From a virus (lineage: Duplodnaviria; Caudoviricetes): a stretch of 64,000 nucleotides of DNA. Below are positions 3,901 to 64,000 of the stretch, piece after piece. The stretch is taken from IMG/VR virus record IMGVR_UViG_3300044796_000401. The stretch is one strand, 5' to 3'. The translations under genes were made by a program, and so were the position numbers. Position 1 is the first letter of the stretch. The number at the start of each line of letters is the position of its first letter. The notes under the pieces were generated by a model. The model made no database searches. It worked only from the letters and a program-made list of their open reading frames with translations, and had not been told where the DNA came from.

Positions 3901-4175
3901 TTCTCGCGGAACACGTCCCACATCTGCACCTGGCCCCAGAGCGGGATGCGGTCGGCCCACTCCGGACGCCAATCCAGCGGCACGCCGAAGATGCACTTGG
4001 CGATGACGCGCTGCACGGGGCGCAGGACTATGCCGGTGCCCTGCGGGCCTTCGATGAACTCGACCGCGTTCATCAACTTGCGGTTGATGTCCGTTAGCCC
4101 GGCGCTGATCGCCTTGCCGAAGGCGGAATTCCTCTGCGCTTCCTTGTTGAATATCGAGACCCTGCGTGGCGGCAT
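933..4175 (-). CDS. terL: terminase large subunit, intein-containing
   Basis: Walker A region FAGRRGGK|S, Walker B FLALDEFAHF, coupling motif ISSP, and RNase H-like nuclease motifs WGFDLG and GAHDDMADA. Confidence 0.92.
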   Translation of the reverse strand: MPPRRVSIFNKEAQRNSAFGKAISAGLTDINRKLMNAVEFIEGPQGTGIVLRPVQRVIAKCIFGVPLDWRPEWADRIPLWGQVQMWDVFREKLIRTVSEEEYLHIAFNENRCNIDDWRDIPNLGKTYGGYNEAVVFAGRRGGKALALDEPIPTPNGFVRNGDIKDGDMVLSPSGKPTKVVYAHEPFVSEVYCVTFDDGTSVLAHPEHRWLTFTRADRMASCYRTPEHRKARREQRRVRAVAAGYEYAPRPEIVGLCTKLQPMGSVKTTQEIFQTLKVGNYSNHAIPLPRAVELPDKDLPLDPYCFGCWLGDGESAGGNYAAEESDALEILKYFVSAGFSWKKSKRKHRWSIRGLKVVLRKMGVLGNKHIPNDYLWASSSQRKALLQGLLDTDGGCSKGLVTFTNTRRNLSEGVYHLAASLGLKPYWKEVPPRNPKHKVQYWVTWTGESSVFRLQRKLNLLSVTVRKTQKYRYVVSIEPAGRRMVRCLTVEDPDGLFLFGKNFNITHNSELVAAITCFKLYLLLNIRSPQEFFGLVPGSPIDITYLAQDDTGADRLFKKLSERVNHCSFFEPFVRDNNSKKLTFVCEADRHKRDITPTLTVWSLPCSTNAVRGPSSVFLALDEFAHFRAEKGSTSEDMYAAATPSTVDFHHTERIYADGTTEAIPPEADPDNEEEVLEEDISAQVYEKNILAPRLPGQFGVQDSMIFSISSPLKRVGKMYELHKLALSKGAASSIFTLNCSTAEMNNKVLSKTLRADHEKNPLTFRAEFGGQFLESSESYVTEAAVKSCVDCHWDETGLPTEGSTRLNVVSFIPQLHLGRNYFWGFDLGMICDASALAIAHLEYGGGGGIRLIYDYIDRMMVGEHFTGPFIPQAPGEKRYENYKVLPLEDILVWMKAINRILPCFRGATDQHGGQQLAQLLELNGIFNFEMLNITPAINSQMAYALRGYIENKLCSFPYEPKFIKELKLVELEVASKYRIRVQAPMEKGAHDDMADAAMLCALLAQNWLVKEGNVHMDPKGIGLLMQQQQSRPPAPLSNIDGVPLSTLKVMERTKKLTTNLGYSSGTAPRSPWSRRGGRHR
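2655..3746 (-). mobile_element. intein (364 aa) with LAGLIDADG endonuclease, class 3 signature
   Basis: Begins ALALDEPIPTPNG right after GRRGGK and ends NITHN|S. LAGLIDADG-like motifs GCWLGDG and LQGLLDTDG. AT-richer than the flanking exteins. Confidence 0.93.
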
Positions 4176-4990: not shown

Positions 4991-6781
4991 TCATAAAGGC
5001 ATTGAATAGCGCCTTTTCCCAGAATCCCATATGCGATACCAACCCCCAACCCTTGCTGCTTGCTTTTCATTAACTCCGGCTTTGACCCGGAATGCATACT
5101 TAGAAACTCGTTTAACCCCATTTGTATATCCGTAATCCGGTCTAAGCTCCTTCTCAAATGTAAATCCAAGCTTTTCATACAGACTTCCTGTATGAAAGCG
5201 GTTGTCGGAAAAAGTCACCATGCGAGTGAACTCCATGGCCTTGAGCGACGGCTTCGCCATGGTTAAAGCCTTTTCATGGGGATTCCAAGCCTTAAACCGG
5301 CAATCCCAGCAAGCTCGGTGCCACAGCACGGTATGAGCTTCGCGTTTCATGAACACCCAGCAACCTACAATCTCTTCTTTGTATTTCGCCACAACAGTAA
5401 GACATCCACTGGCGGCCCCAAGATAATGATTGGCATCCAAAAACCCTCTAGCATCCTTGGGAGTTCCGCGTTCAACCGTGAAAATTGGATTGATGCGTTT
5501 TTTGCTTGTCGGTTTGATCGCATCACAAAGCATACGTTCCATGATATTGCGTTTGTTTTTCCATTCATCAGCGTAAATCTGGATCAGACGGTCTCCACGG
5601 TTCACGGCGATCAAACTCTTATCGTAGTCGGCTTTTGTCCCACTGTATTTTTCCGAGTGCCATATCAGTCCGTGATGCTCAACAGCTAGTTTCTTAGACG
5701 GGATGTAGATGTCATAACTTTTGCGGGTACCCAATATTCGGTAAGTTCCGTTGTACGTACTGGGCTCTAATGATGCCACAAACTTTCTGATTTCCGATTC
5801 GGGGGAAGCGGGACCTTGCCCCTTGCTACAGCCGCAGGAAATTGTTCGCCCCGAAATTATATTGAATAGGTTGGAAACGATTTTACCCCCGCAGTCGCAA
5901 AGCAAGCGTACTTTCTTTGTAACCCCCCATTCCTCGGGGAGAGGTTGGTTGGGGTCTATTTTAAGGCTGCCCCACGATTGGTCTAACCACTCAAATTTAG
6001 GCTTCCAATTGCAGCGACCGCAGGAACTAACGCGTTGATTTACAACATTGTAAATGCTGGTTGATACACTTCGGCCACAATCACAAATGAAACGTAGCGG
6101 TGCTGATCGCCCATCCCCCCACTCGTCCGGCAGGACTTGGTTCCCATCCAACGCTAGTTTTTCCCATCTCTGCTTTAACCAATATGCCTTGGGCTTCCAG
6201 CTACACTTACCGCAGGAGGTGGAGTTGCCTGACACAACCCACGATCCGCGTAGCGTAGAATTCCGGCCACATTGGCATTGAAATTCAAACTTCTTTGCTG
6301 ACATTAGATTGAATACGTCAGGTAAAGGTTGGGTTTTACGCAGAGAGTATTTGCCCCACTTCTGACTCAGCCAGTAGTTTTTTGGACGGTCATTGCAATG
6401 ACCGCAGGAAGCGATTCGTCCCGATTGAACATCAGGCAAATACTTGCGTGTAATACTGCCACAGATGCAGTTGAAGATTAAAAATTTGGCGTGGCTGGGC
6501 GGGAACTCCTTAGGAAGAGGTTGATCCGCTGATAGTTTCAAACTTCCCCAAGCCTGTTCGAGCCAATAAGAGGCTGGCTTACAGGTACATTTGCCACAAG
6601 ATTTGACCTGCCCGCGAGTTAGATTTTTGAACACAGGAGAGAACGATCTACCACAAGAACAGATCGCTGAAAGCTTTTGATGACTGCCCGGCCCCCACTC
6701 ATCTAGTAGATTTTGAGTGGGGTCTAGTCTAACCCCACCCCACAATTGGCCCAGCCAATAATCTTTCAGCATATACACCAA
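4991..6781 (-). CDS. Hef-like PD-(D/E)XK homing endonuclease with five Cys-rich repeats and a C-terminal GNAT-like domain
   Basis: Five ~64-aa repeats W..Q.WG...CxCG...SCGxC, then ESEI...YDIYIPSKKLAVEHHGLIWH (nuclease), then VTFSDNRFHTGSLYEKLGF (GNAT-like). AT-rich. Confidence 0.7.
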   Translation of the reverse strand: MVYMLKDYWLGQLWGGVRLDPTQNLLDEWGPGSHQKLSAICSCGRSFSPVFKNLTRGQVKSCGKCTCKPASYWLEQAWGSLKLSADQPLPKEFPPSHAKFLIFNCICGSITRKYLPDVQSGRIASCGHCNDRPKNYWLSQKWGKYSLRKTQPLPDVFNLMSAKKFEFQCQCGRNSTLRGSWVVSGNSTSCGKCSWKPKAYWLKQRWEKLALDGNQVLPDEWGDGRSAPLRFICDCGRSVSTSIYNVVNQRVSSCGRCNWKPKFEWLDQSWGSLKIDPNQPLPEEWGVTKKVRLLCDCGGKIVSNLFNIISGRTISCGCSKGQGPASPESEIRKFVASLEPSTYNGTYRILGTRKSYDIYIPSKKLAVEHHGLIWHSEKYSGTKADYDKSLIAVNRGDRLIQIYADEWKNKRNIMERMLCDAIKPTSKKRINPIFTVERGTPKDARGFLDANHYLGAASGCLTVVAKYKEEIVGCWVFMKREAHTVLWHRACWDCRFKAWNPHEKALTMAKPSLKAMEFTRMVTFSDNRFHTGSLYEKLGFTFEKELRPDYGYTNGVKRVSKYAFRVKAGVNEKQAARVGGWYRIWDSGKRRYSMPL

Positions 6782-6833: not shown

Positions 6834-9800
6834 TTATTCACGAGTTCCACAAACAAACTTATAGCGCATAATCATAGAGTCAGTGTCGATAGACTCGGCC
6901 CTCACGAATACCTCGTACACATAGCCCCCCTTCGGGCTATCGTTCCAAACGGCCGCTTGGCTCCAACTATCATTGATACAGTCCTGCACTTGACTGTCGC
7001 TCAGTTTGTCTAGCAAATACTTCACGCGGCTGCCCGTGTTAACAATGTTGTAGCTGCTCATGCCCTGCGGCTGCTCGATCTGGGCAAGCTGTACTTCGCC
7101 GACGCCCGGAACTTTGTCCAGCAGCGGGCGGCTGGTGACCTTAAATGCGCTGGTCATTGTTGCGGCTATCTCTCCGCACACCTTCTTCAGGAACATCCCG
7201 AACTGTTCAACCTCGGTCCCTGCGGCTGCTTTCTTCTGCAAGATAGACTCAGCCGAAGGTCCACCTTCATACTGCCCGTAGAACTGCTCGCGCCACAGGT
7301 CGCCCGCGCCGCGGATGTCGTCGTTGCCGCTGTTGGACCCTGCGGCGCTCTTCGATGCCACTTGCAGCGACGAGCCCGGAACGCTGTCGTAATTTCCGTA
7401 GAACTCATCAGTAAACATTAACCCCCTGATATCATTCTCCTTGCGGAGCGGTGCTCCTTCGAGCACCTCGGGCTTGCCGTCGCGTCCGATCCCCATCGCC
7501 CCGGCGGGGCTGGTTGAGGAATAGTCCGCCGAGGTGTGGACCTCTTCGACCTCGCCCACGTCGCCCGGAAGCTGGATCGCCTCCACGATGCCGATGTTGT
7601 CCATGGCGTTGTCGATCATGGTGTCGAGGTTCTGCTGGTCCGGCTCGCCGACCATCTCCGGTGCCTGCACGCCTTGCGGCGTGTTGGTGGCGTTCGGGTA
7701 GTCCACGATCTCGTGCTGGATTTCCGGGTAGAATTCCTTCAGGACTTGACCGGGGAAGAAGAAATTGAAGCCCGCTTCCTTTTCAAGTTCCGTTTGGCTC
7801 TTTACCACGCCCTTCGGTTTTGTGTCGTCTGCCATTGTTTTGTCCTTTGCCACTATGTACCAGCGCATCTGCTTCTGTTTCACCATGCCGCGGTCCTGAA
7901 GCTCCTTGAGAAACGGGTACGCAAGATTCGAGTGCTCCTCGCCGCCGAGCAACCGGTTAACCTCGCCCGTGGTTTTCGGACCCTGCTCCAAGATGCTCAA
8001 AATCTTGCCGCCCTGCTGCATCCCGTGCATCACATCGCCCATGGCTTCCTTGTACTCAGCCGCTTTCTTCACGCCCTTGCCGCCCGCCATGTAGTCGGCA
8101 TCGTCCCAGCGAAGGCCGTGCCTCGCCAAGACCTGCAACGCCTGCTCCTTGTTCATCCCGCCCATGACGCCCACCATTGCATCGGGTGCCTTGAGAGTAT
8201 CGATCGCGATGCGAAGCTGGTGCCTGTCGGGCACGCTGAGAGCGCCTTTGATCCCCATTTCCTGCATGAGCTTCTGGTCCTCTTCCGTGAGGTCCAGCTT
8301 GTCCTTAGACTTCGGCTCCGGAATCGGTTTTCCCGCTGCCTTCAGTTCTTCCTTCTCGCTTTCGACGGCGCTCTCCGCTATCTCTTCCCAGTTGACCTCG
8401 CCCATGGGCTGCTCCCAACTGTTCTGGACATCCCCGATGCCGTAGAAGAGGTTGTCAACCCTGTGCTTGAAACCCTCCTCCTTGGTCTGGGGCTGGTAGC
8501 CCTCAAGCTCCTTGCGCTCGAATTCCCCGCGGTCATCGCGAGCATTCTGGGCGTTATCCTCGTGAAATTGCGCGGTCTCCTCCGCTTGCTTGCGGAACAG
8601 GCGGCTGAACTGCCCGGCAAGCTGCTTTATCCCGATGCCCTTCTTCAGGGCGTTGGCGGCCAAATTGCGCTTGGTGTTGTAGACGGACTCCGTGTTGTCG
8701 ATCAGCAGGGCGACGTGCCATGTGCTCCAGTTCGTCCAGCCCTCGTAGCCTCCATCCTCGTCCGCCTTCTTGGATGACGCCGCCTTGCGCTGCTGCTCCT
8801 GCCAAGGGCATTTCGTGCACTTGTAGGTTCCGTCGTGGGTCTCTTTCCTCGCCTCAGCGCCGCACCACGGGCAGCGCATCGTGTCGGCGGCGGTCTTGGA
8901 GCTCATGACCTGAGTCCGCTCGGGGACGGTCCGGGACGGTGCTTGCGGCGTTGTCTTCGGCTTGTAGGGCTGGAGCTTCCACAAATACTTCTCAACCAAG
9001 GCATTGACCTTGTTTTCCGGCCTGGAAATCCCCGCGTACTCGCGGCGGAAGTCTTCCGCATCCTGGCCGCGCAACACGTACTCCCGCCCGTCCATGAGGA
9101 TGACCATCTGGAAACCGCTGGCGTCCCGGCCCTGCAACACGGAGATCGCGGCAGTACGTATACGGCCCAGGAATTCCCGTCCCGCTTTCTTCAAATCCCT
9201 TATGGAAATTGCTGCGGTCTTGCTGAGCGCCGCCGCCTTCTTCGCCGGGTAATCCCAGGACTCAAGGGCCGGACCTTCCAGATCGGTTCCGCCGAACATG
9301 CCGCCTCCATGACCTGATGTAATCTTGCCTTGATCCTCGCCGCCAATTGCCTCGTCATTCTTGGAAGCGATGTTGATGATGATCTGCTTGCCGGGCTTGG
9401 CGTCGATCTCCACCGATTTGCCAGCCTCCTCGGCTTTGACTTCTTCCTGCTTCTCAGAAATCGGCACACCGACTTCCATCTCGGACTGCGTCTCGATGGC
9501 CTCGCGGATGGCGTTCACGTTCGCACGCTCCGGAGAATGCAGGTCGCCATCGAGCACGGGGGAAGCCCCGTTCTCCGAGTGCGAGTTCTCATGAAGCTCG
9601 TCGTTCGCCGGACCTGCCTCGGGGCCGGGAACCGCGGGCTCCATTTTCTGCCCCAGTTCGTTGTCGCTATGGATCATTTCCGCTGCTTTCTTGCCGCCTA
9701 CCGGAATGCCCCGACGCTCAAAGTCGTAACACGTCTGCGAACATAAGAGCTTGCCGTTGGCTCGATAAGGCTCTTTCGTGATAGGGTCGCCGCACCGCCC

Positions 9801-10043
9801 GCATTTCTGTTCCCCTGCTGCCTTCTTGGAGGCGGTAACCTGACCGTCGTCGGATATTCCTTGATTCGGGATGACAGCTACGGAACCGTCCGCGAAGCGG
9901 ACCTTGGTTTCCTTATTGGGGTACTTTCCTGCCGGACCCAGATTCTCGACGATCTCCAAGTCCGTTCCCGAACGGCGGAAATCCCCGCCGTAGGAATACT
10001 TCGTCACGTCCCAATAACCCCAGCCCGCCAGCAATTTCGCCAT
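6834..10043 (-). CDS. large modular head-associated protein (1069 aa) with KxAA-delimited modules
   Basis: Long ORF with phage-like codon use, adjacent to the upstream gene by TAA-ATG. Contains Zn-ribbons, a YEGWTNWSTWHVALLIDN module and a wHTH-like module. Confidence 0.75.
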   Translation of the reverse strand: MAKLLAGWGYWDVTKYSYGGDFRRSGTDLEIVENLGPAGKYPNKETKVRFADGSVAVIPNQGISDDGQVTASKKAAGEQKCGRCGDPITKEPYRANGKLLCSQTCYDFERRGIPVGGKKAAEMIHSDNELGQKMEPAVPGPEAGPANDELHENSHSENGASPVLDGDLHSPERANVNAIREAIETQSEMEVGVPISEKQEEVKAEEAGKSVEIDAKPGKQIIINIASKNDEAIGGEDQGKITSGHGGGMFGGTDLEGPALESWDYPAKKAAALSKTAAISIRDLKKAGREFLGRIRTAAISVLQGRDASGFQMVILMDGREYVLRGQDAEDFRREYAGISRPENKVNALVEKYLWKLQPYKPKTTPQAPSRTVPERTQVMSSKTAADTMRCPWCGAEARKETHDGTYKCTKCPWQEQQRKAASSKKADEDGGYEGWTNWSTWHVALLIDNTESVYNTKRNLAANALKKGIGIKQLAGQFSRLFRKQAEETAQFHEDNAQNARDDRGEFERKELEGYQPQTKEEGFKHRVDNLFYGIGDVQNSWEQPMGEVNWEEIAESAVESEKEELKAAGKPIPEPKSKDKLDLTEEDQKLMQEMGIKGALSVPDRHQLRIAIDTLKAPDAMVGVMGGMNKEQALQVLARHGLRWDDADYMAGGKGVKKAAEYKEAMGDVMHGMQQGGKILSILEQGPKTTGEVNRLLGGEEHSNLAYPFLKELQDRGMVKQKQMRWYIVAKDKTMADDTKPKGVVKSQTELEKEAGFNFFFPGQVLKEFYPEIQHEIVDYPNATNTPQGVQAPEMVGEPDQQNLDTMIDNAMDNIGIVEAIQLPGDVGEVEEVHTSADYSSTSPAGAMGIGRDGKPEVLEGAPLRKENDIRGLMFTDEFYGNYDSVPGSSLQVASKSAAGSNSGNDDIRGAGDLWREQFYGQYEGGPSAESILQKKAAAGTEVEQFGMFLKKVCGEIAATMTSAFKVTSRPLLDKVPGVGEVQLAQIEQPQGMSSYNIVNTGSRVKYLLDKLSDSQVQDCINDSWSQAAVWNDSPKGGYVYEVFVRAESIDTDSMIMRYKFVCGTRE

Positions 10044-13000
10044 TTATTTATCCTCGCCCGCCTCGGGTTCTTCCGCCATGACTACATCAGCCAAGTCCCC
10101 GGCCCCGAGGTCGATGGGGATTTCCTCCGGCAGATTGTCGCCCGCCGCCGCTTCCTTGCCTGCCGCCATCTGCCCGAAGGTCCAGACGATCTGGTTGCAT
10201 TCATGGCAGAACATCTTCTTGCCTTCCGCGACTGTGAAGGTCTCCGTGTCGGGGGAGAAGCAGCGGGGGCATTCGCCCCTCGACGCCCTTTCCCCGCCGA
10301 TTCTGGGGTTCTGCTCTTGGCTCTCGAACAGCCCCGAGGCTTCCTTGTCGCTCGCCAGGATCGCCGGAACATCCAAAGCTTCCGGCGCTCCGCCGCCCAG
10401 GTTGGACACAGGCTGTTTGCCGCTTTCCGTTTCGCCCTGTGCCACAGGGATTTCGGACGCCGAAACCTTGGCGGCTTCCGGGACCGACTTGGTCTCCCGC
10501 TTGATGCTCGGGTCAACCGTATCGGGGCTCACAGTCTCGGACTTGGCTTCCGCCACGTCTCCGGAGACAGGAGCAGCGACCTTGGCCGCCTCCGGTACCG
10601 ACTCGGTTTCCTGATGGATATCTGTGTCCACGGTGTCGGGGCTCACGGTCTCGGACTTAGCCTCGGCCACGTCGCGACTAACATCGCTGGAAGTCAGAGG
10701 CAAGCTCATCTGGTTCGGGTCGGGCTCGGATGCGGGTTCCTCTTCATCGTACAGATTTCCGCCGTACTGCATCCATACGTTCTTTCCGCTCACTAGTTCC
10801 TCAACCATATCTTCGATCTGGTAGCGTTCGTGCCAGTAGACGTTCCCGCCCGGATCGGAAATGATCTCGCCAGAGGTCAATGCACCGATATCCTCGGGGT
10901 TGACCCATTCCCAGCCGTTGCCAGTGAAGTCTTCGAGCAAATCGTGAAGCTGCGGGTTCCATTCAACAAACCCCTTGCCCACATCAGCCTTGTTCTCAGC
11001 AACTTCGTTGAGAAGCTCCGGAGTCGGCTTCAGTGTGATGCCGCCCTTTGAATAAACAGCGGTCACATAGAGACCATCGAATTTGCCTGTCGGCTCGGCC
11101 GCTGTCTTGCTGCGCAGTTCCTCGGCCGAAGTGGTTTCCGGCTTCGTGTTGCTGTTCGTGGCGTAGGGGCTCACGGATTCCGCCTTGGCTTTCGCCAAGT
11201 CCTGCTGGATGCCGTCCGCCAACTTCTGGCCCGTGGGACCGTCGCTCGGCCCTATGTTGTCGATGGGCTTCTTCGGTTTTGGCGTCGTTATGGTTCCCAA
11301 GGCGGAGGCGCTCCTCGCGTTCGGCCCGCTGGTGTCCGCCTTGACGGCGTTCTTCTTGTCTTCCGGCGCTCCGTCGCCGTCCTTCCAGTTGTACGGGTTG
11401 TCGGCGGTATCGGCTTTCTTTTGGGATACGCCCGTGCGTGATGTGAGTGTGGATTTAAAATCCGGATGATGCCGCAGATTTTCTGCTTCATAGCCTCGCG
11501 GTTTTTCATCCGATTGTGCGGCACGATAGGCTGCCTGACAGCCACGACAAGTTGCATCCCAAGCAGGATGCTTTTCGCAATGCACCTGCTTTTCAAAACC
11601 GCCAGCGCCCTTGGACTGCTGCTTGTCATATTCCTTGTGGTGCTGCACGGTCGAAGATTCCCCGGTTTCCTTGGTTGGTGCTTCGCCCTTATCGGCGTCC
11701 ACGGCGTTGTCCGCAATGTCCGCCCTCTTCGGCTTGTCGGCCTTGACCTTCTTGGCAGACGTGTGGATGTCCCCTTCAAGAGGCTCGCCACTTTTGTCCA
11801 GATCGGGCTTCTCGTAAAGCTCTTCTTCCTCGGAAGGCTCTTGGCAGTTGCAAGACTCGCCCTCTTCCACATCGCTGCCGCATATCGGGCACTCGTTGTA
11901 GCGGACCCAGCCCTTTTCCGGCACCCACGTCTTCTTCCCGTTGGGGCAGCCAAGTTCGTGGCACGGTATCCCGTTGATGCTGAGCATCTCGCACTGGTCG
12001 CACCCGAACTTCGGCGCATCGGATTCCAGTTCGTCGGCTGCTTCCTTCACGAAGTCTTCCATGCTGGACGAAACCTGCCACGGCTTGTCGGACTCCGGCT
12101 CGTCATGTTCCTGCTTCGCCTCCGGCATGGAATCTTCTTGCGCCTCGGCTTCGGGCTCGGACAATGCCTTGTCGTCTTCCGGCTCGTCGCTCTTGAACGC
12201 CTCGGGCAACTCGCCTACATCTTTCTTGTTCGGGCGGCCATCAGTGCTGCCCTCCGGCTGCGTCGCGGTCTCACCAGGAACATCAATATCGACCAATGGT
12301 GCCGGTCCCATATCCTCGGTAATTTCTTCCCAGATCGAGTCGATGTCGAGCGCGACATCCGCCTGCTTGGGGCGGAGCTTGTTCAGCTTTGCTTCGCGCT
12401 CGTCATATGCCTTTTTGGTCTTCAAGGACGCCACTTCATAGCCCTCGTCGAAATCGGCGGCGATATGCTCGGCGATGAAATCCGCCTTGATTTGCTGGGC
12501 GGCTGTCTTAAGAGTCGGGTTTGGTCCCCATTTCCCTGCATCGATCTCTGCTGCATGGTCGAGCATGGCATGGTGCGGCTGCGCATCGGGCGTCGTGGTC
12601 TTGATGAGGTAGGCGCGGACATCCTTGGGCGGGAAGCTGTGCTTGTCGTGGAATCCACCCGTGCCATATGCCGCGGAGTATCCGCTGCCAAGGGAATTTG
12701 ACGAGCTTGCTGGCATGAGTCGCCCAGCGTCCGGATGTGTGCCGGGGTAACGCTTTCCCGTGCGGCTACGATTCTTGGTAATAGCGGCTTCCTTGTCAGA
12801 AGCGAGCACTTCCGGAAGAACCTTGACAGCGGTGCTGATCGCGCTGCCGACACCTTCCGCGGCGTTTTGCAGCGGATTTTCCTCATTTTGCGAATCTCCG
12901 TTAGTGGCTTTCTTCTCCGAAACCGTTCTCGGAAGCTCCTCCCCACTGGCGAAACCGCTGGGAAGCTGACGGAATGCCTCGGGGCTGTGGTCCTTCAGCC

Positions 13001-15032
13001 ATCCAGCTAGCCAGTGGCGCATGAACGCATACAGGTAATCGCGCCCGGCGTTGCCACGGGAGCGGATTCTCTTGCGGAAGGCTGTGTTGGCGGCGTACAC
13101 CCTCTCCGCGTAGTTTGTGAGGTAGTCCACTACAGGCTCGGTGTTCTCACCAATGGAGTCTTGCAGCCCCTTGCCAACGAAGAACATTTGGACTTCGCGG
13201 ATGACGCTGTCAGCAATGACCGTGGGCAGGATCGGCGTGTCGTCCTCGATGGCGGAAGTCTTCTTGCTGCCGACCTTGGCTTCCTCTTCCTCGCGGCGGG
13301 GAACCCCGGTCTCGTCGATGGCCACGCCGATGGGCGGCTCGCCTTCCTGCTTTTCGACACGCTCCTTGACGGCCTTGACCGTGCCTTCTTGGGCTGCGGC
13401 TGCCTCGGTGCCCGGCCCGACGTTCGTAATCGGGGTCTCGTGAGCGGCGGGCTCGATGCAAGCGCATTTCTTGCCAGATGTTTTTCCTTCTTCCAGCAAG
13501 CCAGCACCATCAAAGCGGACGGTTTCACCATTGGCAAGCATTTCAATTGGGTCTTCAATCTGATAACGTTCATGCCAGTAGACGTTCCCGCTCGGGCTGA
13601 GAAGAATTGGAGCAGAAGTCAAAGCACCGACATCTTCCGGATTCTTCCATTCCCAGCCGTTGGAAAGTAGGTCTTCAAAGATGTCCATCAGAGCGTTGTC
13701 AGTCGGCTTGTCCTTGTAAGCGGGGATTTCCTTCAAGCCGAGTTCGGTCGCGGCGACATTCAAATTGCCTTGCGGATCAATCTTGAAGGAAACGTAAGCA
13801 CCCCGGTCATCGTCTTCGTGGGCGTCCTTGTGCCTCTTGGCAGCCTCGTCCAAGCACTTGTTGCAACGGTCGCCACGGGCTTCGTCACCCATGAGAGTTG
13901 CATGGCAGGTCTTGCATTTCTTATCGGCGGCTGACTTCGCTTCCCCCTCTTGCTTGTCTGTCTTCTTTTCAGAGCCGAACGGCGGGGCTTGTCTTCCACC
14001 AAATGCCTCGGCGGCTCCGGTTTTTGGAGCGTCTTCCTTGTCTTTCTTGCCGGAGGTGCTCTTGTTCTTGCAGAAATTGCAACCACAGTCGGGCTTGCGA
14101 CCCCCGACAGAGTTTTCGGATTCATGGGACTTGGCAAGCCCCTTCATCGATTCGTACGACATGGCTTCTTTGGACGCCACGCGGGGAACGTCGAATCCGC
14201 CGTCGTCGTGATGCTCTTCCCCGGCTTCCTCCGCCGTCTCGGTGCTGGGTACCAAAGCTTCGCTGAGCGCCTGATTGAGGGACTCGAACACGTCGAGTTC
14301 CTGCGGGTCCAGTACTTCCTGGGTCACGGCGTCGGCCGTGCGGTGGTTCAGGAAAATCTTCTTCTTGTTCCCGGCTTGCTTCTGGAGGTCCGGATACTGC
14401 GTGAGCAAGTTCTCGGCGAGGAACGGGAAATTCAGCTTCGGGGTGATGTCCGTAACGTCGATCTTGGTCGTGTTGGCGTTCGTCATGATGGCGTTGAATG
14501 CGCTCGACAGACGGGGATCGTAGTACGCCGCGAACACCTGATGCCGCAAGTTGTTCTTGAGTTGCGTCTCGTCCTTCGTGAACTTGAAGACAATATACTC
14601 GCGCTTGCTGAGCCAGTTGGGGGCGAACAGGACGAGGGACTCGAACTTGCCGTCTCCGACGCCGAACAAGCGCTCTTTGATTGTGTCGAAGTCAGCTTGG
14701 CTGTATTCGTCCCAATCGCTAATACCGATCCTCTTCTCGATCATGTCGCCGACTTCCTCGCCGCCGAATTCCCTTACGATGCAGCCGTAGAGCAACGCAG
14801 TCGGGAAGTCCTTGCGGTCGGAGCAGATAGACGCCGGAATGACATAGATGCGCCCGATGCAGATGTTGGCACGAAAGCCGCGATAGAACACCTCGAAGCT
14901 CTGGATGTTCCCGGACGAGCGGGCCTGTTTCTCCCCCGCTTGTACGGCCTCTGTGACTTTCGCCAGCAGGTCTTCGCTGATGATAAACGAACTGTAGCTT
15001 TTTCCAACGTTAGAATTTCCGCTTACGCCCAT
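10044..15032 (-). CDS. very large modular acidic protein (~1662 aa), probable virion-internal polyprotein
   Basis: Start re-called at MGVSGNS (15032; GGGAG SD, just after the HNH stop). Internal duplicated modules and many KxA motifs. Confidence 0.75.
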   Translation of the reverse strand: MGVSGNSNVGKSYSSFIISEDLLAKVTEAVQAGEKQARSSGNIQSFEVFYRGFRANICIGRIYVIPASICSDRKDFPTALLYGCIVREFGGEEVGDMIEKRIGISDWDEYSQADFDTIKERLFGVGDGKFESLVLFAPNWLSKREYIVFKFTKDETQLKNNLRHQVFAAYYDPRLSSAFNAIMTNANTTKIDVTDITPKLNFPFLAENLLTQYPDLQKQAGNKKKIFLNHRTADAVTQEVLDPQELDVFESLNQALSEALVPSTETAEEAGEEHHDDGGFDVPRVASKEAMSYESMKGLAKSHESENSVGGRKPDCGCNFCKNKSTSGKKDKEDAPKTGAAEAFGGRQAPPFGSEKKTDKQEGEAKSAADKKCKTCHATLMGDEARGDRCNKCLDEAAKRHKDAHEDDDRGAYVSFKIDPQGNLNVAATELGLKEIPAYKDKPTDNALMDIFEDLLSNGWEWKNPEDVGALTSAPILLSPSGNVYWHERYQIEDPIEMLANGETVRFDGAGLLEEGKTSGKKCACIEPAAHETPITNVGPGTEAAAAQEGTVKAVKERVEKQEGEPPIGVAIDETGVPRREEEEAKVGSKKTSAIEDDTPILPTVIADSVIREVQMFFVGKGLQDSIGENTEPVVDYLTNYAERVYAANTAFRKRIRSRGNAGRDYLYAFMRHWLAGWLKDHSPEAFRQLPSGFASGEELPRTVSEKKATNGDSQNEENPLQNAAEGVGSAISTAVKVLPEVLASDKEAAITKNRSRTGKRYPGTHPDAGRLMPASSSNSLGSGYSAAYGTGGFHDKHSFPPKDVRAYLIKTTTPDAQPHHAMLDHAAEIDAGKWGPNPTLKTAAQQIKADFIAEHIAADFDEGYEVASLKTKKAYDEREAKLNKLRPKQADVALDIDSIWEEITEDMGPAPLVDIDVPGETATQPEGSTDGRPNKKDVGELPEAFKSDEPEDDKALSEPEAEAQEDSMPEAKQEHDEPESDKPWQVSSSMEDFVKEAADELESDAPKFGCDQCEMLSINGIPCHELGCPNGKKTWVPEKGWVRYNECPICGSDVEEGESCNCQEPSEEEELYEKPDLDKSGEPLEGDIHTSAKKVKADKPKRADIADNAVDADKGEAPTKETGESSTVQHHKEYDKQQSKGAGGFEKQVHCEKHPAWDATCRGCQAAYRAAQSDEKPRGYEAENLRHHPDFKSTLTSRTGVSQKKADTADNPYNWKDGDGAPEDKKNAVKADTSGPNARSASALGTITTPKPKKPIDNIGPSDGPTGQKLADGIQQDLAKAKAESVSPYATNSNTKPETTSAEELRSKTAAEPTGKFDGLYVTAVYSKGGITLKPTPELLNEVAENKADVGKGFVEWNPQLHDLLEDFTGNGWEWVNPEDIGALTSGEIISDPGGNVYWHERYQIEDMVEELVSGKNVWMQYGGNLYDEEEPASEPDPNQMSLPLTSSDVSRDVAEAKSETVSPDTVDTDIHQETESVPEAAKVAAPVSGDVAEAKSETVSPDTVDPSIKRETKSVPEAAKVSASEIPVAQGETESGKQPVSNLGGGAPEALDVPAILASDKEASGLFESQEQNPRIGGERASRGECPRCFSPDTETFTVAEGKKMFCHECNQIVWTFGQMAAGKEAAAGDNLPEEIPIDLGAGDLADVVMAEEPEAGEDK
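10464..10677 (-). repeat. two tandem ~114-bp copies encoding DVAEAKSETVSPDTVD...ETxSVPEAAKV
   Basis: Direct repeat visible in both DNA and protein; end coordinates approximate. Confidence 0.85.
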
Positions 15033-15033
15033 G

Positions 15034-15606
15034 TTATTCTCCCGCTCCGATTGCCACTCCAATCGAATGCCTGTAAATCTTTGAAATGTGCCGCTTGAAA
15101 TTCTCAACCGACATAGCGGCCTTCATCCTATTGCAGTCCCAGCAGCAAGGCACAACATTGCCCTCGACATACCCGTCCGTGCTTTTTAGCCTGTCTATGC
15201 CGTTGCAAATTAACTCTTGCACACAGTGTTGGTGCCGAACAATTCTCGTTGGTACATCTCCGCAGTAAAAACAGTCTGCCGCAATCAACTCAGTGAAGCA
15301 TTCAACAGACAATCCCCAAGATAATTTCCGCCTACCAGCGTTGCGCCTGTAGTACTCCAGTACCTTGTTTCTATTAGCTTCATTATTCGGAAGCCCGTTG
15401 GCTTTTCCGACTCCGGACATGAAATCCTTAAGTAAGCAACCACAACTTCTTGTATGCCCGTACCTCAAGTCGCATCCGTTAACGACTGGAGTTGCCCCAC
15501 AATCGCACTGGCACAACCACGTTGGCTGCCCATGTTTATTGGTACCTACTTTTTTGATAACCAATAAACGCTCAAACCGTTTTCCGGTCAGGTCAATTAA
15601 TCGCAT
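15034..15606 (-). CDS. HNH homing endonuclease
   Basis: DLTGKRFERL...WLCQCDCG...SCGC N-terminus, then CFYCG...GIDR...GYVEGNVVPCCWDCNRMK. Confidence 0.85.
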   Translation of the reverse strand: MRLIDLTGKRFERLLVIKKVGTNKHGQPTWLCQCDCGATPVVNGCDLRYGHTRSCGCLLKDFMSGVGKANGLPNNEANRNKVLEYYRRNAGRRKLSWGLSVECFTELIAADCFYCGDVPTRIVRHQHCVQELICNGIDRLKSTDGYVEGNVVPCCWDCNRMKAAMSVENFKRHISKIYRHSIGVAIGAGE

Positions 15607-16115
15607 TTGGTTTCCGTAGTAAAATCCAACTTATCAACAGCTTTTCTTATTCCCGGTTCCCGTTGGGCCATTTCATCCCTCCACTGACGGAGAAATTGTT
15701 GAACGGTACTCTCGTCGATACCGATTTTCTTAAGGGTATCAACCGCTCCCTGGCGATACTCTCCTAGCACAAAAGCCAAACGAGGACCATCAAAGTTCAA
15801 AAAATCCTTCTTGCTGAGCACGTCGGACTCCATCAGTTCCTTGCCGAGTTCGCGGAACGCCTTGACTTGCGATTCCAGCACCTTGACCTTCAGCCCGTCC
15901 AGCATGTTGGTGCTCACATCCTCGCTGCAAATCATCATCTCTGCCGTGACAGAGGCGATCTCGGCGGCTATTTTCCGCTTGATGGGTGCCAGCGGGGCAT
16001 CCGGGTCGTCGATCATTTCGCGGATTTCCTTGATCTTGGAAAACCGCTCCCGCTCGCTCATGACGGGCGTGTGGGAGACTTCCCCGTTTTTTTCTACCTT
16101 GAGTTCCTCGTTCAT
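15597..16115 (-). CDS. hypothetical helical protein (small terminase subunit possible, unproven)
   Basis: 172-aa ORF translationally coupled (TAATG) to the upstream gene. Confidence 0.6.
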   Translation of the reverse strand: MNEELKVEKNGEVSHTPVMSERERFSKIKEIREMIDDPDAPLAPIKRKIAAEIASVTAEMMICSEDVSTNMLDGLKVKVLESQVKAFRELGKELMESDVLSKKDFLNFDGPRLAFVLGEYRQGAVDTLKKIGIDESTVQQFLRQWRDEMAQREPGIRKAVDKLDFTTETKCD

Positions 16116-18202
16116 TAATCGACATCCACCTTGAATGAAGCGTTCGACTCCACGTCGAGCCGATCCGGTTCGTCAGCACTAATATCCTGCTGCGCTGCCG
16201 GGCCGGACAGATCGTACTCGTTCAAGATAGAGTGCCCGTCTTCCGCCTTCTTCGACGCCGTCTTCTTGCTCGGGTCGTTCATGCCCGGATAGGCAAGAAT
16301 CGGGGCATCCCCGCTGCTGGCGACCACCCGGTCCGCCGGAGGACGCACCTGTTCGAGCGTGCGAAGCGCCTCGGGCTTGAACCCGACCCTTGCGAGGAAG
16401 GACTGGTCGGATGCGTTGACCTGAATCCGCCCCGGCACCCTCTTCAGTTTGGCGAGGTACTGGGCTACGACCCTCTTCGCTTCCGGCGTGCCCATCTTCT
16501 TGGCGGCGACGGCAAAAATGCGCTCGATGCTGTGCCCCTTCTGGTGCATCAGCCTGACATCAGCCGCGGTGATCGCCGCCTCGGCCGATTCCTTCTGTTG
16601 CGCCGCCACGACGGAAGCCGTGCGCTGGGCGAAGTTGCCGCTCACGCGCATCGCGCCGCGGTCTTCCTCGACCGGGCGTGCCGGGCGTCCAAAGTGGCTC
16701 GGGCAGGAAGCGCACTTCGCGCTGCCTTCGAACTTCTCGTTGCGGATGCCGATGGAGTTCAGGAATTGGAGGTCGGACGCGGCTATCACGATCCTGCCCC
16801 TGTCGTTCTTGCGGAGCGACTGGACGAAGCCCCTGAATGCCACGCTGGTCTCGATCGAGCCGAACTTCTTGTCGGCCCACTTGTAGGCGTCCTTGAGGGA
16901 TACGCCCTTGTCATGGAGCTTCGCGAGGTGCCCGGAAGTGAATGTCCGCCGCACGGGCTGCGTGCGGGCCGCCTGATTATAGACACTGGCGTCGGCGGTC
17001 TTGACGATCTGCGTCTGCGCCGTCTTTCCGGCGTCGAACGGCTGGACATGCTCGTCCGTGCGGTTGGCGATTTGCACCAAGGCGGCGCGTTTCTGCTTCA
17101 GCGGCACGCCGGGCGTAAGGTTGTTCACGATCTGGCTGAGTTCCCCAGCGTTCGCCACGACCGGGAGGTGGTACAGATTGCACCGCTTGCCAGATGCGTC
17201 CTTCTTGAAGAACGTACAGCCGGGGCACGCCCCGATCTGCTTGACGCTCTTCGCCTGCGGCTTGATGCCAGCCCTCTTCATCCCCTCGAAGGAGGCGACG
17301 CACTCGTTGGAGCCGCTGCTGCCCGTCACTTCGTAGGGCTTGGTGCTGAAGATGATGCGGTCGCAATGCGGGCAAAGGCTGTTGCCTTGGAGAACCTTGG
17401 GGACGACATCCTTTTTGCACTCGGTGCAATACAGCTTCCCGCCGAAGCTCATGCTTTTCGCTTCCTCGACGCCCTTGTTCCAGGCAAGCTCGTCCTGCTC
17501 GCAAGTGCACCTGTCGCCGGGCTTGTGGCACAATGCGCAGGTATCGTGCTTCAATGCCCCGGCGTTGTGGCGATAGTTCGGATTCTGCTTATCCATAAAC
17601 GTGTTGGGCTCAAGGTAGGCCATGCCCAGCATTCCGGCATTGCGCTGGAGATAATCGGTCGCCGTCGTGTGGTTGAAAAGCTCAAGCTCGGCCAGCTTTT
17701 CGAGCTTCTGGGCGACCTTCGCCGGGGACGTGCCTTGGTTGAGCAGCCCGCGGATGTACTTCTGGACCGCGGCATCGGTGACTTCCTTCTTGTCGGCGGT
17801 GTTCTCCTTCAGGTTTCCCCCGGACGCGGCCTGTTCCAAGCTCATCGTGACTTCGTTGAACAGCGAATCGCTGTCGCCGTAAGCGTTGCGGTACTCATCT
17901 TCTCGGGAGTAGGCGTCCTTGTGCCAATTCTCCTGCACGGCGGAGACCCGAGGAGACGCTTTCTCCTTCTCGCGAAGGCGATCCGTGAGGGTGGCGCTCT
18001 TCGACGGCGGGATGGGGGTGTGCTTCGAGGCCGATTCCGAGATTTCGTCCATGAAGTCCCGATCGATGAGGGAATGCGTGCGGTCGAGCGTTTCCTCGCC
18101 GGACTTTTTTGCCTCGTCAAGATCGAGGTCTTTCCACGAGGGTTCCCTGGAGTCAAGAATTTCATCCAAAATACTTGTATAAGGCAGTTTTTCTTTCGCC
18201 AT
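16115..18202 (-). CDS. modular Zn-binding hypothetical protein (~695 aa)
   Basis: Start re-called at MAKEKLPY. Several CxxC clusters and KTA/KKA motifs. Confidence 0.7.
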   Translation of the reverse strand: MAKEKLPYTSILDEILDSREPSWKDLDLDEAKKSGEETLDRTHSLIDRDFMDEISESASKHTPIPPSKSATLTDRLREKEKASPRVSAVQENWHKDAYSREDEYRNAYGDSDSLFNEVTMSLEQAASGGNLKENTADKKEVTDAAVQKYIRGLLNQGTSPAKVAQKLEKLAELELFNHTTATDYLQRNAGMLGMAYLEPNTFMDKQNPNYRHNAGALKHDTCALCHKPGDRCTCEQDELAWNKGVEEAKSMSFGGKLYCTECKKDVVPKVLQGNSLCPHCDRIIFSTKPYEVTGSSGSNECVASFEGMKRAGIKPQAKSVKQIGACPGCTFFKKDASGKRCNLYHLPVVANAGELSQIVNNLTPGVPLKQKRAALVQIANRTDEHVQPFDAGKTAQTQIVKTADASVYNQAARTQPVRRTFTSGHLAKLHDKGVSLKDAYKWADKKFGSIETSVAFRGFVQSLRKNDRGRIVIAASDLQFLNSIGIRNEKFEGSAKCASCPSHFGRPARPVEEDRGAMRVSGNFAQRTASVVAAQQKESAEAAITAADVRLMHQKGHSIERIFAVAAKKMGTPEAKRVVAQYLAKLKRVPGRIQVNASDQSFLARVGFKPEALRTLEQVRPPADRVVASSGDAPILAYPGMNDPSKKTASKKAEDGHSILNEYDLSGPAAQQDISADEPDRLDVESNASFKVDVD

Positions 18203-18204
18203 AG

Positions 18205-19200
18205 TTATGCGGCAGCCGAGGCTGCTTTCTCCTTCTTTAAACATGTAACTTGTGCTCTGTTGGCGCAAGCGGAACTACAATATTTTCTTACTCCCGCGAG
18301 ACACAAATCCCTCCTGCGCAAGACAATCGAAGAACCGCACGTTAAACACACATTCGGATGGGTAAGGTATTCATTCCATTCACGATTATGACGTTCTCGA
18401 ACCGATTCGCTGCGCAAAGTACGCACAAAACGATATACGCCTTGAACGCCTTTGGTATACCCGAGTGCTTGTAACCGCCCCCAAATTGTAACCCCGTCTA
18501 GCTGTGGCATTTGTTGGAGCCATGAAGTGACAATCTCCCGAAAGGGCTCGCACTCCCTATGAATACGAGGACTCAAAAGTTGTACTTGACGCATTCTATC
18601 TGCCTGAGCTTTACGCCGTGTGGCGGTCCAATGCTCTTGCTGTTCTTTTCTAAAAATCGGATCATTCCAAGCAGCTTTAGAGATTAAACTCATACGTGTT
18701 TTTATGTCTGCCGGATATTCCCGTTGCTTGTTGTACGCAGTAAAACGCTCTCCGTGGCGCTTTTTACGTTCGTGGTTGGATTGCCATGCTGCCTTGCGCG
18801 ACGCGCTCTGTCTGTCACGGAATTCCTTTGATAACCACAACCGCTTGGAAATCCCGCTTTGTTGTTTTCGCCTTGCGGGTGAGAGTTTGATTCCAGAATT
18901 CCTGCCCGCTAGCGGCATGACGTTGTACCCATTTTTAACCGCGTCGAACGAGTTTATCGCCATCTGTTCGTGCCACAACAGGTCTTCCTTTGGGCAAAAC
19001 GCCAACATCTCAAATTCAAAGGCGGCGGGTCCGTATTTATTCCAAGCGCGTTGAAAATGGATGCTGTGGTGCCCGTTGGCCTTAAGAAGCCTTAGATGGG
19101 CAGCTTTTCGTTCTCGTACTTTGGCAGAACTCCCAATATAGGATTTCTGGGTGATTGTGTTCAGCCAGCGATAGACCCCGCAATTGAAAAAGTCTGTCAT
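18205..19200 (-). CDS. GIY-YIG homing endonuclease
   Basis: GVYRWLNTITQKSYIGSS...FQRAWNKYG...E...GYN motif set. AT-rich. Confidence 0.88.
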   Translation of the reverse strand: MTDFFNCGVYRWLNTITQKSYIGSSAKVRERKAAHLRLLKANGHHSIHFQRAWNKYGPAAFEFEMLAFCPKEDLLWHEQMAINSFDAVKNGYNVMPLAGRNSGIKLSPARRKQQSGISKRLWLSKEFRDRQSASRKAAWQSNHERKKRHGERFTAYNKQREYPADIKTRMSLISKAAWNDPIFRKEQQEHWTATRRKAQADRMRQVQLLSPRIHRECEPFREIVTSWLQQMPQLDGVTIWGRLQALGYTKGVQGVYRFVRTLRSESVRERHNREWNEYLTHPNVCLTCGSSIVLRRRDLCLAGVRKYCSSACANRAQVTCLKKEKAASAAA

Positions 19201-44165: not shown

Positions 44166-44211
44166 ATCCCTAGTATACAGCGTCGGGGGAATTTTGGCTA
44201 TCTGCAAGGTG

Positions 44212-58631: not shown

Positions 58632-59591
58632 TTAGTTTTCCCCGACGTTGGCAGTCGAAGCGTAGCGTCCGTTGACGTGAAGCGCCTGAATGCCACTTGG
58701 GTTGAAGACGAGGAAGCCGAGGTTTTCAAATATGCTAAATCCTATTTGACGAAGGTCCGGACGATCCGCCGACATGACTGTCAGAGGAATACGTTCGGGG
58801 ATCACACCGAGGAACTCGGCGTCCGCCAGGATGTAGATCGAGCCGTAGCCGACCTTACGGGACTGGAGGAGCGTTGCGCCCCAGAGATAGCCCATGACAC
58901 CTGTCTTGAGCAGCTTGCGCTGAGTTTCCCTGTCGATGTTCTGTTGGGTCCACTTCAACAGGTCCGTGTAGTCGCGGGGGTTGAAGAAGACGAATGCCAC
59001 CGAGAGGTCGTGGCGCTGCACCTGCCCAAAACCGTCTGCCATCGAGTTGATGTCGATGGGGGCGTTGATGGCGATGCTCACGTTGTAAACCGGGTCGTTG
59101 GCCGACTTTGCGTTGGCGGCGGTAGCCACGGCGTCAAAGAGCCCGAAGACGTATCCGTCTTCCTGCGCGCCAACTTCGGCCTTAGCCAAGTTGAGCGAGC
59201 GGGCGACGAGATCGAACCTGCGTTCCTTGATCTGGGTGATCGGAATCATCGGGTTGGAGACGATTTCGAAGGTGGGAACAGTGACACGCTTCGGCTTGGT
59301 GACGCGGACGATGTCCCCGCCCTCTTCGCCGACGACGAATGCTTCCACGAAGGACGAGCCCGGCGTTGAGCCGACCGTCATCGCGGAAGTGTCAAATTCC
59401 TTGTCGTAGATGGGCAATGCGCCATCCGGCAGCGTTTCGACCATGAGCGCCTTGCGGGCGATACTCATGTAGTCGCGACGGCGACGGAGGGAAGGACCGA
59501 GAGAAGCAGCGAGCTTCTGGCGGCCGCCAGCGGTCTTGAGAAGCTGACCGAGCATTGCGGTTTGCTGTTGTGTGCGAGATAGATTAGCCAT
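58632..59591 (-). CDS. major capsid protein (HK97-like fold inferred)
   Basis: 319 aa, downstream of scaffold-like and decoration-like genes, with its own terminator. Pattern RKALMVETLPDGALPIYD...PTFEIVSNPMIP...RRFD...EVGAQED...ENLG is typical of large-phage capsids. Confidence 0.8.
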   Translation of the reverse strand: MANLSRTQQQTAMLGQLLKTAGGRQKLAASLGPSLRRRRDYMSIARKALMVETLPDGALPIYDKEFDTSAMTVGSTPGSSFVEAFVVGEEGGDIVRVTKPKRVTVPTFEIVSNPMIPITQIKERRFDLVARSLNLAKAEVGAQEDGYVFGLFDAVATAANAKSANDPVYNVSIAINAPIDINSMADGFGQVQRHDLSVAFVFFNPRDYTDLLKWTQQNIDRETQRKLLKTGVMGYLWGATLLQSRKVGYGSIYILADAEFLGVIPERIPLTVMSADRPDLRQIGFSIFENLGFLVFNPSGIQALHVNGRYASTANVGEN

Positions 59592-62129: not shown

Positions 62130-64000
62130 TTAAAACTCGTCGTTGCCGAGCAATGCGGATGCGATGTCGATCGGCTTCTTCTCGGAGGCAACCACGGGCT
62201 TCAGCTTCTTGATCACCGGAGTTTCCTTCTTGGCGGCTGCCTTGGGCTCTTGCAGTTCGTTGGTCTCGTCCTGCTTCACGCGCTTGAACCCGCCCTCTTC
62301 GGCTTGCTGGTTCTCGATCGCTTCGGCGAACAGATCGCCTTCGTGATCCTGCTCGTTGTCGCGGCTCTCGCCGGTAGCGGTGTCGGATTCGAACTTCTTG
62401 GCCGCCTCGCCTGTGAACGACGGGATGACTTCCATCCCCGCGACTTCGGCTGCGGTGCGGATTTCGCCAGCGATCAGGCGGGCAAGGGGATCGGAGTCCG
62501 AGCCCTTGAGGGAGAAGAAGTCTTCCATCGACGCGATCTGGGTGTCGTCAAGGGAGGCTTCAAGGCTCTCGGCCGCGGACGGCGCGAAGAACTCCTCGCC
62601 GTTCCCGGCGGTGTGCTCGTCGCCCTCATTCGCCAGCGAGGAGACCTTGTCTTCCATCTCGTCTTCGTTGAAAATCTGCGAATAGTCAAGCTCTTCGCCC
62701 TCGACGTTCTCTTCGAGAATTTCCTTCTCAAGGGCGCTGATGGCTTCCTGGGCTTCTTCGATCTTTTCCTCGACGACCATCTTCTTCTCGTCGCTGAGGA
62801 CTTCCGCGGCATTGTCTTCCACCGGGGCTTCCTCCGCTGGAGGTAGCTCGGCCGGAGGCTCGATTGCGCCTTCGTCTGTCGGGGGAACGTCCCCGATCGG
62901 GGCTTCCGCGCCTTCCGCCGGAGGAGCGTCCGTGATGCCTACCGCGGGATCGTCCGCGGTCTTGGCTGCGCCGCACTTGGCGCACTTCTCGCCGTCCGCC
63001 AGCTTTGCGCATTCCGCGCACTTCTCGGCGTCCGCCTTCTTTTCCTTTTTCTTCTCGTCCTTCTTCTCGTCCTTCTTCACGCCAGCGTCCTTGGCGGCTG
63101 GAGCGGCGGCGGCCTTCGAAGCTTCCTTGCCCTTGCCTTCGCCCTCGGATTTGTTGATCGTGTTCGCCGGGCGGTTCGCCGCTTCCGTCTGCGACTTGCC
63201 GGAGCCAGCGTCCATTTCCTTCGGCTCGGAGTGGGTGCCGCCGCCGCATCCGCGCCCGTCATTGTAAGTTTCGACTTGGGGACCGGCATCCTTGCGGTCG
63301 TCCGCGACCTTGGCGGCAGCCTTCGCTTCGCCGTTGAGTTCGGATTTGATCGATGCCTTTTCCGACTTCAGAATGGAGGGGTCTTCGAGGAGATCGTTCA
63401 TTTCGACCTTGTGGACTTGCTTGAAGGTCTCGGCGACCTTCGAATAGTGCGCATTCTTCGCCGTCTGGCGGAGCATGGCATTCAGAACCGGGGTCGGGTT
63501 CTGGAGCAGATTCGCGGCGGCACTCTTCTGTACCTCCGCTGGCGCTGAAGGCAGCATCGTCTTGGCGATGGTCCAAGCGGCAGCGACGCGCTGTTGCGCT
63601 TCTTTCTTGATCGCTTCGCGCTTCGACTTTACTTCCGCAAGCTTTTCCTTCAAAGACGGCTTGCTGGGGGTCTGGGTTGCCATGGTAGAACCTTCCTTTT
63701 TGAGGCTTGAAGGGCCGGAATTGCCCTTCCTATTAGGGGATTGAAAACTGTTTTTCTCGCTTACTGGGGATTTTGCGCTTGCCATCGGGGTTGCAACGGG
63801 GGCTGCGGGCTCTTCGACAGGTGCCGGGACAGGTTCTCCGATGGGGGCCGCATCAAGCACGGGCTCCTCAATGGGGGCTGCCTCAGGAGCCACGGGGGCT
63901 TCTGGAATCGGTGCGGCTTCGGGGGCGAGGGGCGCTGCGGGTTCCGGAGCCATGCCCAGAGCTTCCGGGCCTCCCAAAAGGTCACCAACCGGGGCTTGCT
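62130..64000 (-). CDS. prohead scaffold-like protein, 5'-truncated by the window edge
   Basis: Frame stays open to position 64000. Pro/Glu/Ala linker, coiled coil and acidic tail with KxA motifs; located upstream of the capsid genes. Confidence 0.7.
   Translation of the reverse strand, partial: QAPVGDLLGGPEALGMAPEPAAPLAPEAAPIPEAPVAPEAAPIEEPVLDAAPIGEPVPAPVEEPAAPVATPMASAKSPVSEKNSFQSPNRKGNSGPSSLKKEGSTMATQTPSKPSLKEKLAEVKSKREAIKKEAQQRVAAAWTIAKTMLPSAPAEVQKSAAANLLQNPTPVLNAMLRQTAKNAHYSKVAETFKQVHKVEMNDLLEDPSILKSEKASIKSELNGEAKAAAKVADDRKDAGPQVETYNDGRGCGGGTHSEPKEMDAGSGKSQTEAANRPANTINKSEGEGKGKEASKAAAAPAAKDAGVKKDEKKDEKKKEKKADAEKCAECAKLADGEKCAKCGAAKTADDPAVGITDAPPAEGAEAPIGDVPPTDEGAIEPPAELPPAEEAPVEDNAAEVLSDEKKMVVEEKIEEAQEAISALEKEILEENVEGEELDYSQIFNEDEMEDKVSSLANEGDEHTAGNGEEFFAPSAAESLEASLDDTQIASMEDFFSLKGSDSDPLARLIAGEIRTAAEVAGMEVIPSFTGEAAKKFESDTATGESRDNEQDHEGDLFAEAIENQQAEEGGFKRVKQDETNELQEPKAAAKKETPVIKKLKPVVASEKKPIDIASALLGNDEF

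Follow-up and report, generated by a model that had tools for sequence, protein, structure and literature searches.

The 64,000-nucleotide stretch of viral DNA analysed here (the window; IMG/VR virus record IMGVR_UViG_3300044796_000401, Caudoviricetes) carries two adjoining genes for giant modular proteins, A and B, in which a short peptide motif, [KR]-x-A-[ADSG], occurs again and again; each instance is called a site below, and we propose that these sites may be recognised by the head maturation protease of the phage. Protein A is the open reading frame (ORF) at 6834..10043 on the minus strand (1069 amino acids (aa), 21 sites), and it consists of shuffled N-terminal modules followed by a constant C-terminal domain. 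Protein B is the ORF at 10044..15032, also on the minus strand (1662 aa from the ATG at 15032, 17 sites), and nearly all genes across the window share this orientation. Sequence comparison places the phage among the jumbo phages as kin of Tunturiibacter phage Tunturi 5 and, distantly, of phage G: its major head protein (58632..59591, minus strand; phrog_2522, E 1.1e-42) shares 70.7% identity with gp334, the head protein of the 309-kb myovirus Tunturi 5, 34% with phage G gp27, and 20-25% with the head proteins of Gordonia, Rhodococcus and Mycobacterium myophages. The window is matched at 99.94-99.99% identity by a Logan contig (L002, L006) that runs beyond the window end. Two closer relatives, L007 and L008, have the same gene order as the window and as gp348-gp350 of Tunturi 5, namely a protein of ~650-700 aa, a protein of ~170 aa, a B-like protein, an A-like protein and the terminase. 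The virion gene block of this Tunturi 5-like jumbo phage has A and B at its end.

The two genes are a translationally coupled pair. At window positions 10041-10046, the TAA of B is followed without a gap, and in frame, by the ATG of A. The B-like and A-like genes overlap by 17 nucleotides in L007, out of frame, and by 11 nucleotides in L008; thus, the split between B and A is real and conserved, and read-through of the in-frame TAA is ruled out. The conserved N-terminal domain of B (14223..15005, minus strand), for which an atlas look-up gave no match, opens five family members that finish in the C-terminal domain of A, which means that B and A correspond to one fused protein in distant relatives. 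At its other end, B carries a conserved C-terminal peptide (10047..10145, minus strand; G-D-N-L-P-E-E-I-P ... G-D-L-A-x-V-V), which is preceded by a K-E-A-A-A site and is kept in L007 and L008.

Homologues of A number 92, have 600-1800 aa and lie on contigs of up to 894 kb, and the only region common to them is the last ~315 residues. In A this constant region comprises residues 755-1069, the extreme C-terminus (6837..7781, minus strand), where a near-invariant K-E-A-G is followed by F-N-F-F-F-P-G-Q; K-E-A-G marks the start of the domain in 72-76 of 77 sequences. A profile of the domain (~290 positions), searched against 1.84 billion representatives, recovered 127 clusters at 50% identity, and in nearly every full-length cluster 50-1300 variable residues precede the domain, whose end coincides with the last residue. 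Only the last ~125 residues of the constant region of A fold confidently in the AlphaFold2 (AF2) model, as an alpha+beta unit. Fold searches with the model of the C-terminal domain and with a model of A residues 1-770 gave no convincing match.

The variable part of A is a series of small units that come in differing orders among the homologues. A CxxC...CxxC zinc ribbon (residues 391-413; 8805..8873, minus strand) has sites on both sides, K-T-A-A at 383 and R-K-A-A and K-K-A-D at 419-428, and a DUF7249 module (residues 432-496; 8556..8750, minus strand) is preceded by the sites R-K-A-A-S-S-K-K-A-D. A further unit at residues 681-735 (7839..8003, minus strand) is modelled as helices alone (predicted local distance difference test score about 60-72); from its sequence we infer a winged-helix-like unit, for which no fold match was obtained. 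B contains a duplicated module, with the first copy at 13428..13787 and the second at 10752..10949 (both minus strand); the two share 59% identity over 66 aa. In A and B, scans against Pfam and PHROG returned DUF7249 and phrog_871 alone, and the recognisable modules of the two proteins (zinc ribbons, DUF7249/phrog_871, the winged-helix-like unit and unknowns) include no enzyme domain. The confident parts of the A model are residues 300-360, the ribbon at 388-415, 432-570, 600-660 and the last ~125 residues. Residues 103-266 and 737-936 are strongly conserved, with many invariant residues, and yet are predicted to be unstructured (window 9246-9737, and 7230-7781 for residues 755-936); these stretches may fold only on a partner.

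The motif is far more frequent in both proteins than their composition would give. Compared with residue shuffles, A has 21 sites against 3.6 expected (z 9.4) and B has 17 against 6.5 (z 4.2), and z is still ~8 for A and ~4 for B when shuffling is confined to windows of 10, 20 or 40 residues. K.AA, where the dot is any residue, comes first when all gapped 3-mers in A and B are counted without bias (17 versus 2.0 expected, z 10.2). An earlier reading of this DNA (the original prediction) had listed 20 hexapeptides for the two genes, all of which are present; the excess of the motif over residue composition holds in global shuffles, windowed shuffles and the gapped 3-mer count. The motif is directional: K.AA occurs 10 times in A and 7 times in B, whereas the permuted forms AA.K, A.KA, AK.A, KA.A and A.AK occur 0-3 times each. 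The Ala codons of the sites are mixed (GCA, GCC, GCG and GCT), which indicates selection on the protein and not on the DNA and rules out a DNA-level motif such as a recombination joint. The first Lys is AAG in 22 of 22 sites, but AAG makes up ~80% of all Lys codons. Across the family the favoured context is A-S-S-K-(T/K)-A-(A/S/D/G), with Ser enriched directly before the site Lys and Thr directly after it; as the constant residues are Lys and Ala, a glycosylation sequon is ruled out.

The sites fall at module borders. Homology breakpoints in A cluster at residues 111-130, 221-260, 381-390, 411-437, 601-610, 661-690 and 721-760, and 11 of the 12 site clusters in residues 1-760 lie within a few residues of breakpoints (five or more nearby), compared with 51% of random positions (p 0.004). 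The motif does recur beside unrelated modules, as the original prediction had noted. Over residues 300-770 of A, a site stands at the edge of every low-confidence linker between confidently modelled modules. In the alignment, [KR]-x-A-x comes immediately before the M/I-H-S-D module, the CPWC zinc ribbon, DUF7249 at its Y-E-G-W start, and the constant domain. Where a relative has such a module at its N-terminus, the protein begins exactly there, with M-H-S-D-D-D-L or M-S-Y-E-G-W. A site is also present within the first 40 residues in 48 of 93 sequences (the family and B), often at residues 4-7. Judged by where the stand-alone modules begin, the scissile bond may lie at or just after the fourth motif position; the cut after K/R-x-A in the original prediction was a guess.

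Enrichment extends over the whole family. It is seen in almost all of the 92 homologues of A, and the N-terminal parts of 51 further representatives (at most 50% identical) hold 267 sites where 81.5 are expected (3.3-fold), with the forward forms again exceeding the reversed ones (K.AS 88 versus SA.K 29; K.AG 37 versus GA.K 8). Over roughly 140 homologues, the motif is ~3-fold enriched.

Within the window, two other proteins share this property: a 717-aa protein (16115..18268, minus strand; 9 sites versus 3.4 expected), which gene order and a common Cys-rich stretch match to Tunturi 5 gp348 as its counterpart, and a Lys/Ala-rich scaffold-like protein (62130..64000, minus strand; 13 versus 4.2), whose full 724 aa start at window-equivalent position 64304. 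Pooled, A, B and these two ORFs have 48 K.A[ADSG] against 12.6 expected (11.8 per 1000 aa), compared with 36 against 20.6 (2.2 per 1000 aa) in the other 54 ORFs of the window. The glycan enzymes of the window are at expectation, in line with what the original prediction had noted. The wider spread first attributed to the motif stood for the 717-aa and scaffold-like proteins and is weaker than implied for 45928-50190 (7 versus 3.9, not significant) and 53922-55496 (a single site).

Other phages show the same division. The enriched proteins of Tunturi 5 are gp328 (16 sites versus 4.1 expected), gp332 (10 versus 3.3), gp348 (12 versus 3.7) and gp350 (12 versus 4.2), whereas its sheath has 3 against 2.2, its long fibre proteins of 1381 and 1186 aa have 0 and 3, and its remaining virion proteins are at or below expectation. 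Three homologous proteins in L007 and L008 have z of 3.6-6.9, whereas the terminase and methylases have 0 sites. By these counts in predicted proteins, enrichment is limited to head-module proteins in four phages and is not found in tail, terminase or enzyme genes. Phage G gp7 and gp14 lie at L005:6287-9079 and L005:12336-14282, and gp7 (930 aa) has 8 sites versus 1.9 expected; the phage G portal has sites at residues 18 and 55 and near its C-terminus.

The original prediction expected a head protease upstream of position 64000, and one was located there. L002, which is 99.94% identical to the window, encodes a 302-aa head maturation protease (L002:6233-7141, window-equivalent 64901-65809; phrog_18299, E 1.7e-13) ~0.9 kb past the window end. 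Gene order in this region is a 1058-aa protein, an HNH gene, the protease, an HNH gene and the 724-aa scaffold-like protein, with the head protein further on. The 1058-aa protein (L002:2218-5394) contains Cys clusters and 10 sites versus 3.8 expected, and is not similar to Tunturi 5 gp328. The protease is 59% identical to gp331, the annotated protease of Tunturi 5. H114 and S172 are invariant among 45 and 117 homologues, and they are the presumed catalytic residues. The enzyme falls in a 'Gp19 family' cluster, and its look-alikes by language model and structure include S78, S77 and S80 peptidases. An invariant Cys/His cluster (C182, C185, C196, H198, C221 and H223) with weak zinc-ribbon matches is unusual for a prohead protease. 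The protease clade is highly conserved, and contigs with the A family and contigs with the protease clade have matching sizes, which suggests that the two occur on the same contigs.

The protease itself is bracketed by sites. Of about 79 homologues, 78 have a site at most 25 residues before the protease core; the C-terminal tail has one in 61 of 79, whereas the cores contain just 11 sites in 15,392 residues. Bracketing sites are also present in Tunturi 5 gp331 and in phage G gp19, which is AT-rich and 27% identical. Mycobacteriophage Alice gp90 (L010:6923-11458; 1511 aa, annotated as hypothetical) has the protease as its N-terminal domain, with K-T-A-G directly after it at the junction with the rest of the protein and, further on, a cluster of K-N-A-S, R-T-A-A and R-T-A-A. 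The sites around the protease core look as autoprocessing sites would.

We therefore weighed one reading above others, with a probability of roughly 0.6: K-x-A-(A/S/D/G) would be processed by the head protease. A and B are strings of small independent modules on flexible linkers, and their constant ends, the C-terminal domain of A and the C-terminal peptide of B, would serve incorporation into the prohead. The motif in the linkers and in short N-terminal leaders would be the recognition site of the phage's head maturation protease, probably the protein of 302 residues described above, which belongs to the phage G gp19 family and has an invariant His and Ser. After prohead assembly, this protease would trim or dice A, B, the scaffold-like protein, the 717-aa protein and itself. 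Cleavage, the scissile bond, head packaging and any function after ejection are thus presumed steps of the proposal. The idea of protease-cut proteins in the original prediction is partly supported by comparison: the motif holds up statistically, has a fixed direction, is under selection in the protein, stands at module borders, is confined to head-module proteins in four phages and occurs on both sides of the protease core. Its instance at the capsid N-terminus is weak: the major head protein has K-T-A-G at residues 19-22, but the N-arm of the phage G capsid protein aligns through this stretch without the motif. The instance is therefore doubtful, and we set it aside as evidence. A payload of 'dozens of peptides' and their role as 'ejected effectors' found no support, the modules being without a recognisable enzyme or effector domain.

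Several observations weigh against processing by this protease. The sites at residues 285, 296 and 568 of A fall in predicted helices and not in linkers. The 45 protease members, scanned against Pfam with E up to 1, matched no protease family and gave weak zinc-ribbon matches alone, and hhalign of the protease with T4 gp21 gave a probability of 0.4%, which is not significant; its protease nature thus rests on the PHROG annotation, gene order, the invariant His and Ser, and the language-model and structure look-alikes. The scaffold-position protein gp21 and the capsid protein of phage G have no site. The presence of A and B in the virion is read from gene position. The literature yielded neither reports of cleavage in phage G, Tunturi 5 or Bxz1-like phages nor virion proteomics for Tunturi 5, and the published proteomics of phage G particles used fully tryptic searches (PMC12484599).

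A motif in flexible, accessible stretches of proteins that belong only to the head module could also act without proteolysis. Its linker copies might bind the capsid interior, the scaffold or DNA as an uncleaved short linear motif, and thus load or anchor the proteins in the manner of encapsulin cargo-loading peptides; the constant terminal elements suggest loading, and the literature holds no cleavage data for the group. This we consider unlikely, because the sites tightly bracket the protease core and are nearly absent inside it, one lies at the junction between protease and polyprotein in Alice gp90, and stand-alone modules begin exactly after a site, all of which are patterns expected of processing sites. 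The position of some sites in predicted helices would suit a structural habit, a helix cap or favoured junction inherited with the shuffled modules and without a dedicated reader, and part of the family-wide enrichment is indeed inherited through homologous modules. Such a habit would hardly make the motif directional with rare permutations, let it recur beside unrelated modules and in unrelated proteins (the scaffold-like protein, the protease and the phage G portal) in lineages of very different composition, or keep it out of the tail and enzyme proteins of the same genomes, and we give it a slim chance.

The reader of the motif may instead be another enzyme, such as a host protease, a lysine-modifying enzyme or a glycosylating one. 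The phage has a large glycan gene cluster, the window encodes a transferase of protein mannosyltransferase (PMT) type, and the Ser and Thr preferences around the Lys would fit such an activity. However, the fixed residues are Lys and Ala rather than Ser or Thr, the motif goes together with the protease clade and flanks the protease itself, and it is common to phage G and Alice; this explanation also appears improbable. The sequence pattern itself is sound and well replicated, and processing by the head protease remains our best reading. A stronger form of this reading is tentative, and we hold it to be rather less probable than its negation: the phage G gp19-type proteases, found in jumbo phages of peat and soil, in Tunturi 5, in phage G and in Bxz1-like mycobacteriophages, would be a separate specificity class for Lys-x-Ala-small sites. 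They would mature true polyproteins, giants of shuffled modules that are loaded by a terminal handle of constant sequence and then cut into about a dozen small DNA-binding proteins, with the N-termini that stand-alone genes have in related phages. Modularity, shuffling and stand-alone counterparts of the modules are observed, and the release of the modules as separate proteins, as from a viral polyprotein, would be a prediction.

The surrounding genes complete the picture of the locus. The terminase large subunit at 933-4175 contains a LAGLIDADG intein. Six or more homing endonuclease genes (HNH, GIY-YIG or NUMOD3) are dotted through the virion genes, at 4991-6781, 15034-15606, 18205-19200, 51064-51978, 55496-56233 and 57275-58477; the one at 15034-15606 stands between the ~170-aa gene and B, in a slot that is empty in relatives. 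A PMT_2-type membrane protein, resembling dolichyl-phosphate-mannose protein mannosyltransferases, is encoded at 43041-44207 within the virion gene region.

If the motif is a cleavage code, sequence alone would suffice to predict the substrates of head assembly and their mature products. Such a code would hold for a whole clade of huge phages, in which phage G, Tunturi 5 and hundreds of mycobacteriophages of cluster C are in cultivation; laboratory systems for a direct test of the idea already exist. The Glu-specific prohead protease sites of T4 and the phiKZ-like jumbo phages would then be joined by a second chemistry, and tailed phages would be seen to use polyproteins of shuffled modules as packaged cargo.

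A close model is the prohead protease gp21 of T4, which cuts gp23, gp22, gp24, IPI-III, Alt, gp67 and gp68 at (L/I)-x-E. Several features expected of processed head proteins are found here too: a protease gene in the head block, conserved His and Ser, and one short motif that several head proteins share with the protease and that tail proteins lack. As with T4 gp21, there is one head protease, a short consensus is common to scaffold, internal and capsid proteins, packaged proteins have short N-terminal leaders, the protease itself would be trimmed, and the motif predicts the substrates, although cleavage in the present case is a prediction. The site differs, Lys-x-Ala-small instead of hydrophobic-x-Glu, and the two proteases have no detectable sequence relation; likewise, no significant profile match (Pfam, hhalign) connects the protease with the S77, S80 and S78 families of T4 gp21, phiKZ gp175 and HK97 gp4. 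The presumed substrates here, known from sequence alone, are giant proteins of many shuffled modules that carry 10-20 sites apiece.

A second comparison is with the jumbo phages phiKZ and SPN3US, whose proteases gp175 and gp245 process inner-body or ejection proteins at (S/A/G)-x-E or A-x-E (PMC5694885, PMC10052503, PMC7411985). There, as here, many head-internal proteins share one protease motif, and in those phages processing was established by semi-tryptic mass spectrometry. The protease clade of the phage G gp19 family and the chemistry of the motif are different, and processing in phiKZ and SPN3US mostly strips propeptides, whereas the sites described here separate many modules.

Like DarB of the P1 Dar system, A and B are very large proteins presumed to be packaged in the head, and gp350 of Tunturi 5 bears the label 'DarB-like antirestriction' from a structure-based annotator (PMC11924767). 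Pfam and PHROG scans found none of the methyltransferase or helicase domains of DarB in A or B; therefore, the label lacks sequence support here. In MuF-type polymorphic head proteins and in encapsulin cargo, as in A, one constant terminal element is combined with a freely varying rest, and this analogy suggests that the constant element may be a loading handle joined to variable cargo. However, the constant part of A is C-terminal and without a known fold match, there is no MuF domain, and many small modules take the place of one toxin domain. Taken together, the scheme is best read not as a new kind of system, but as one of the T4/phiKZ type with a new kind of site and unusually modular giant head proteins.

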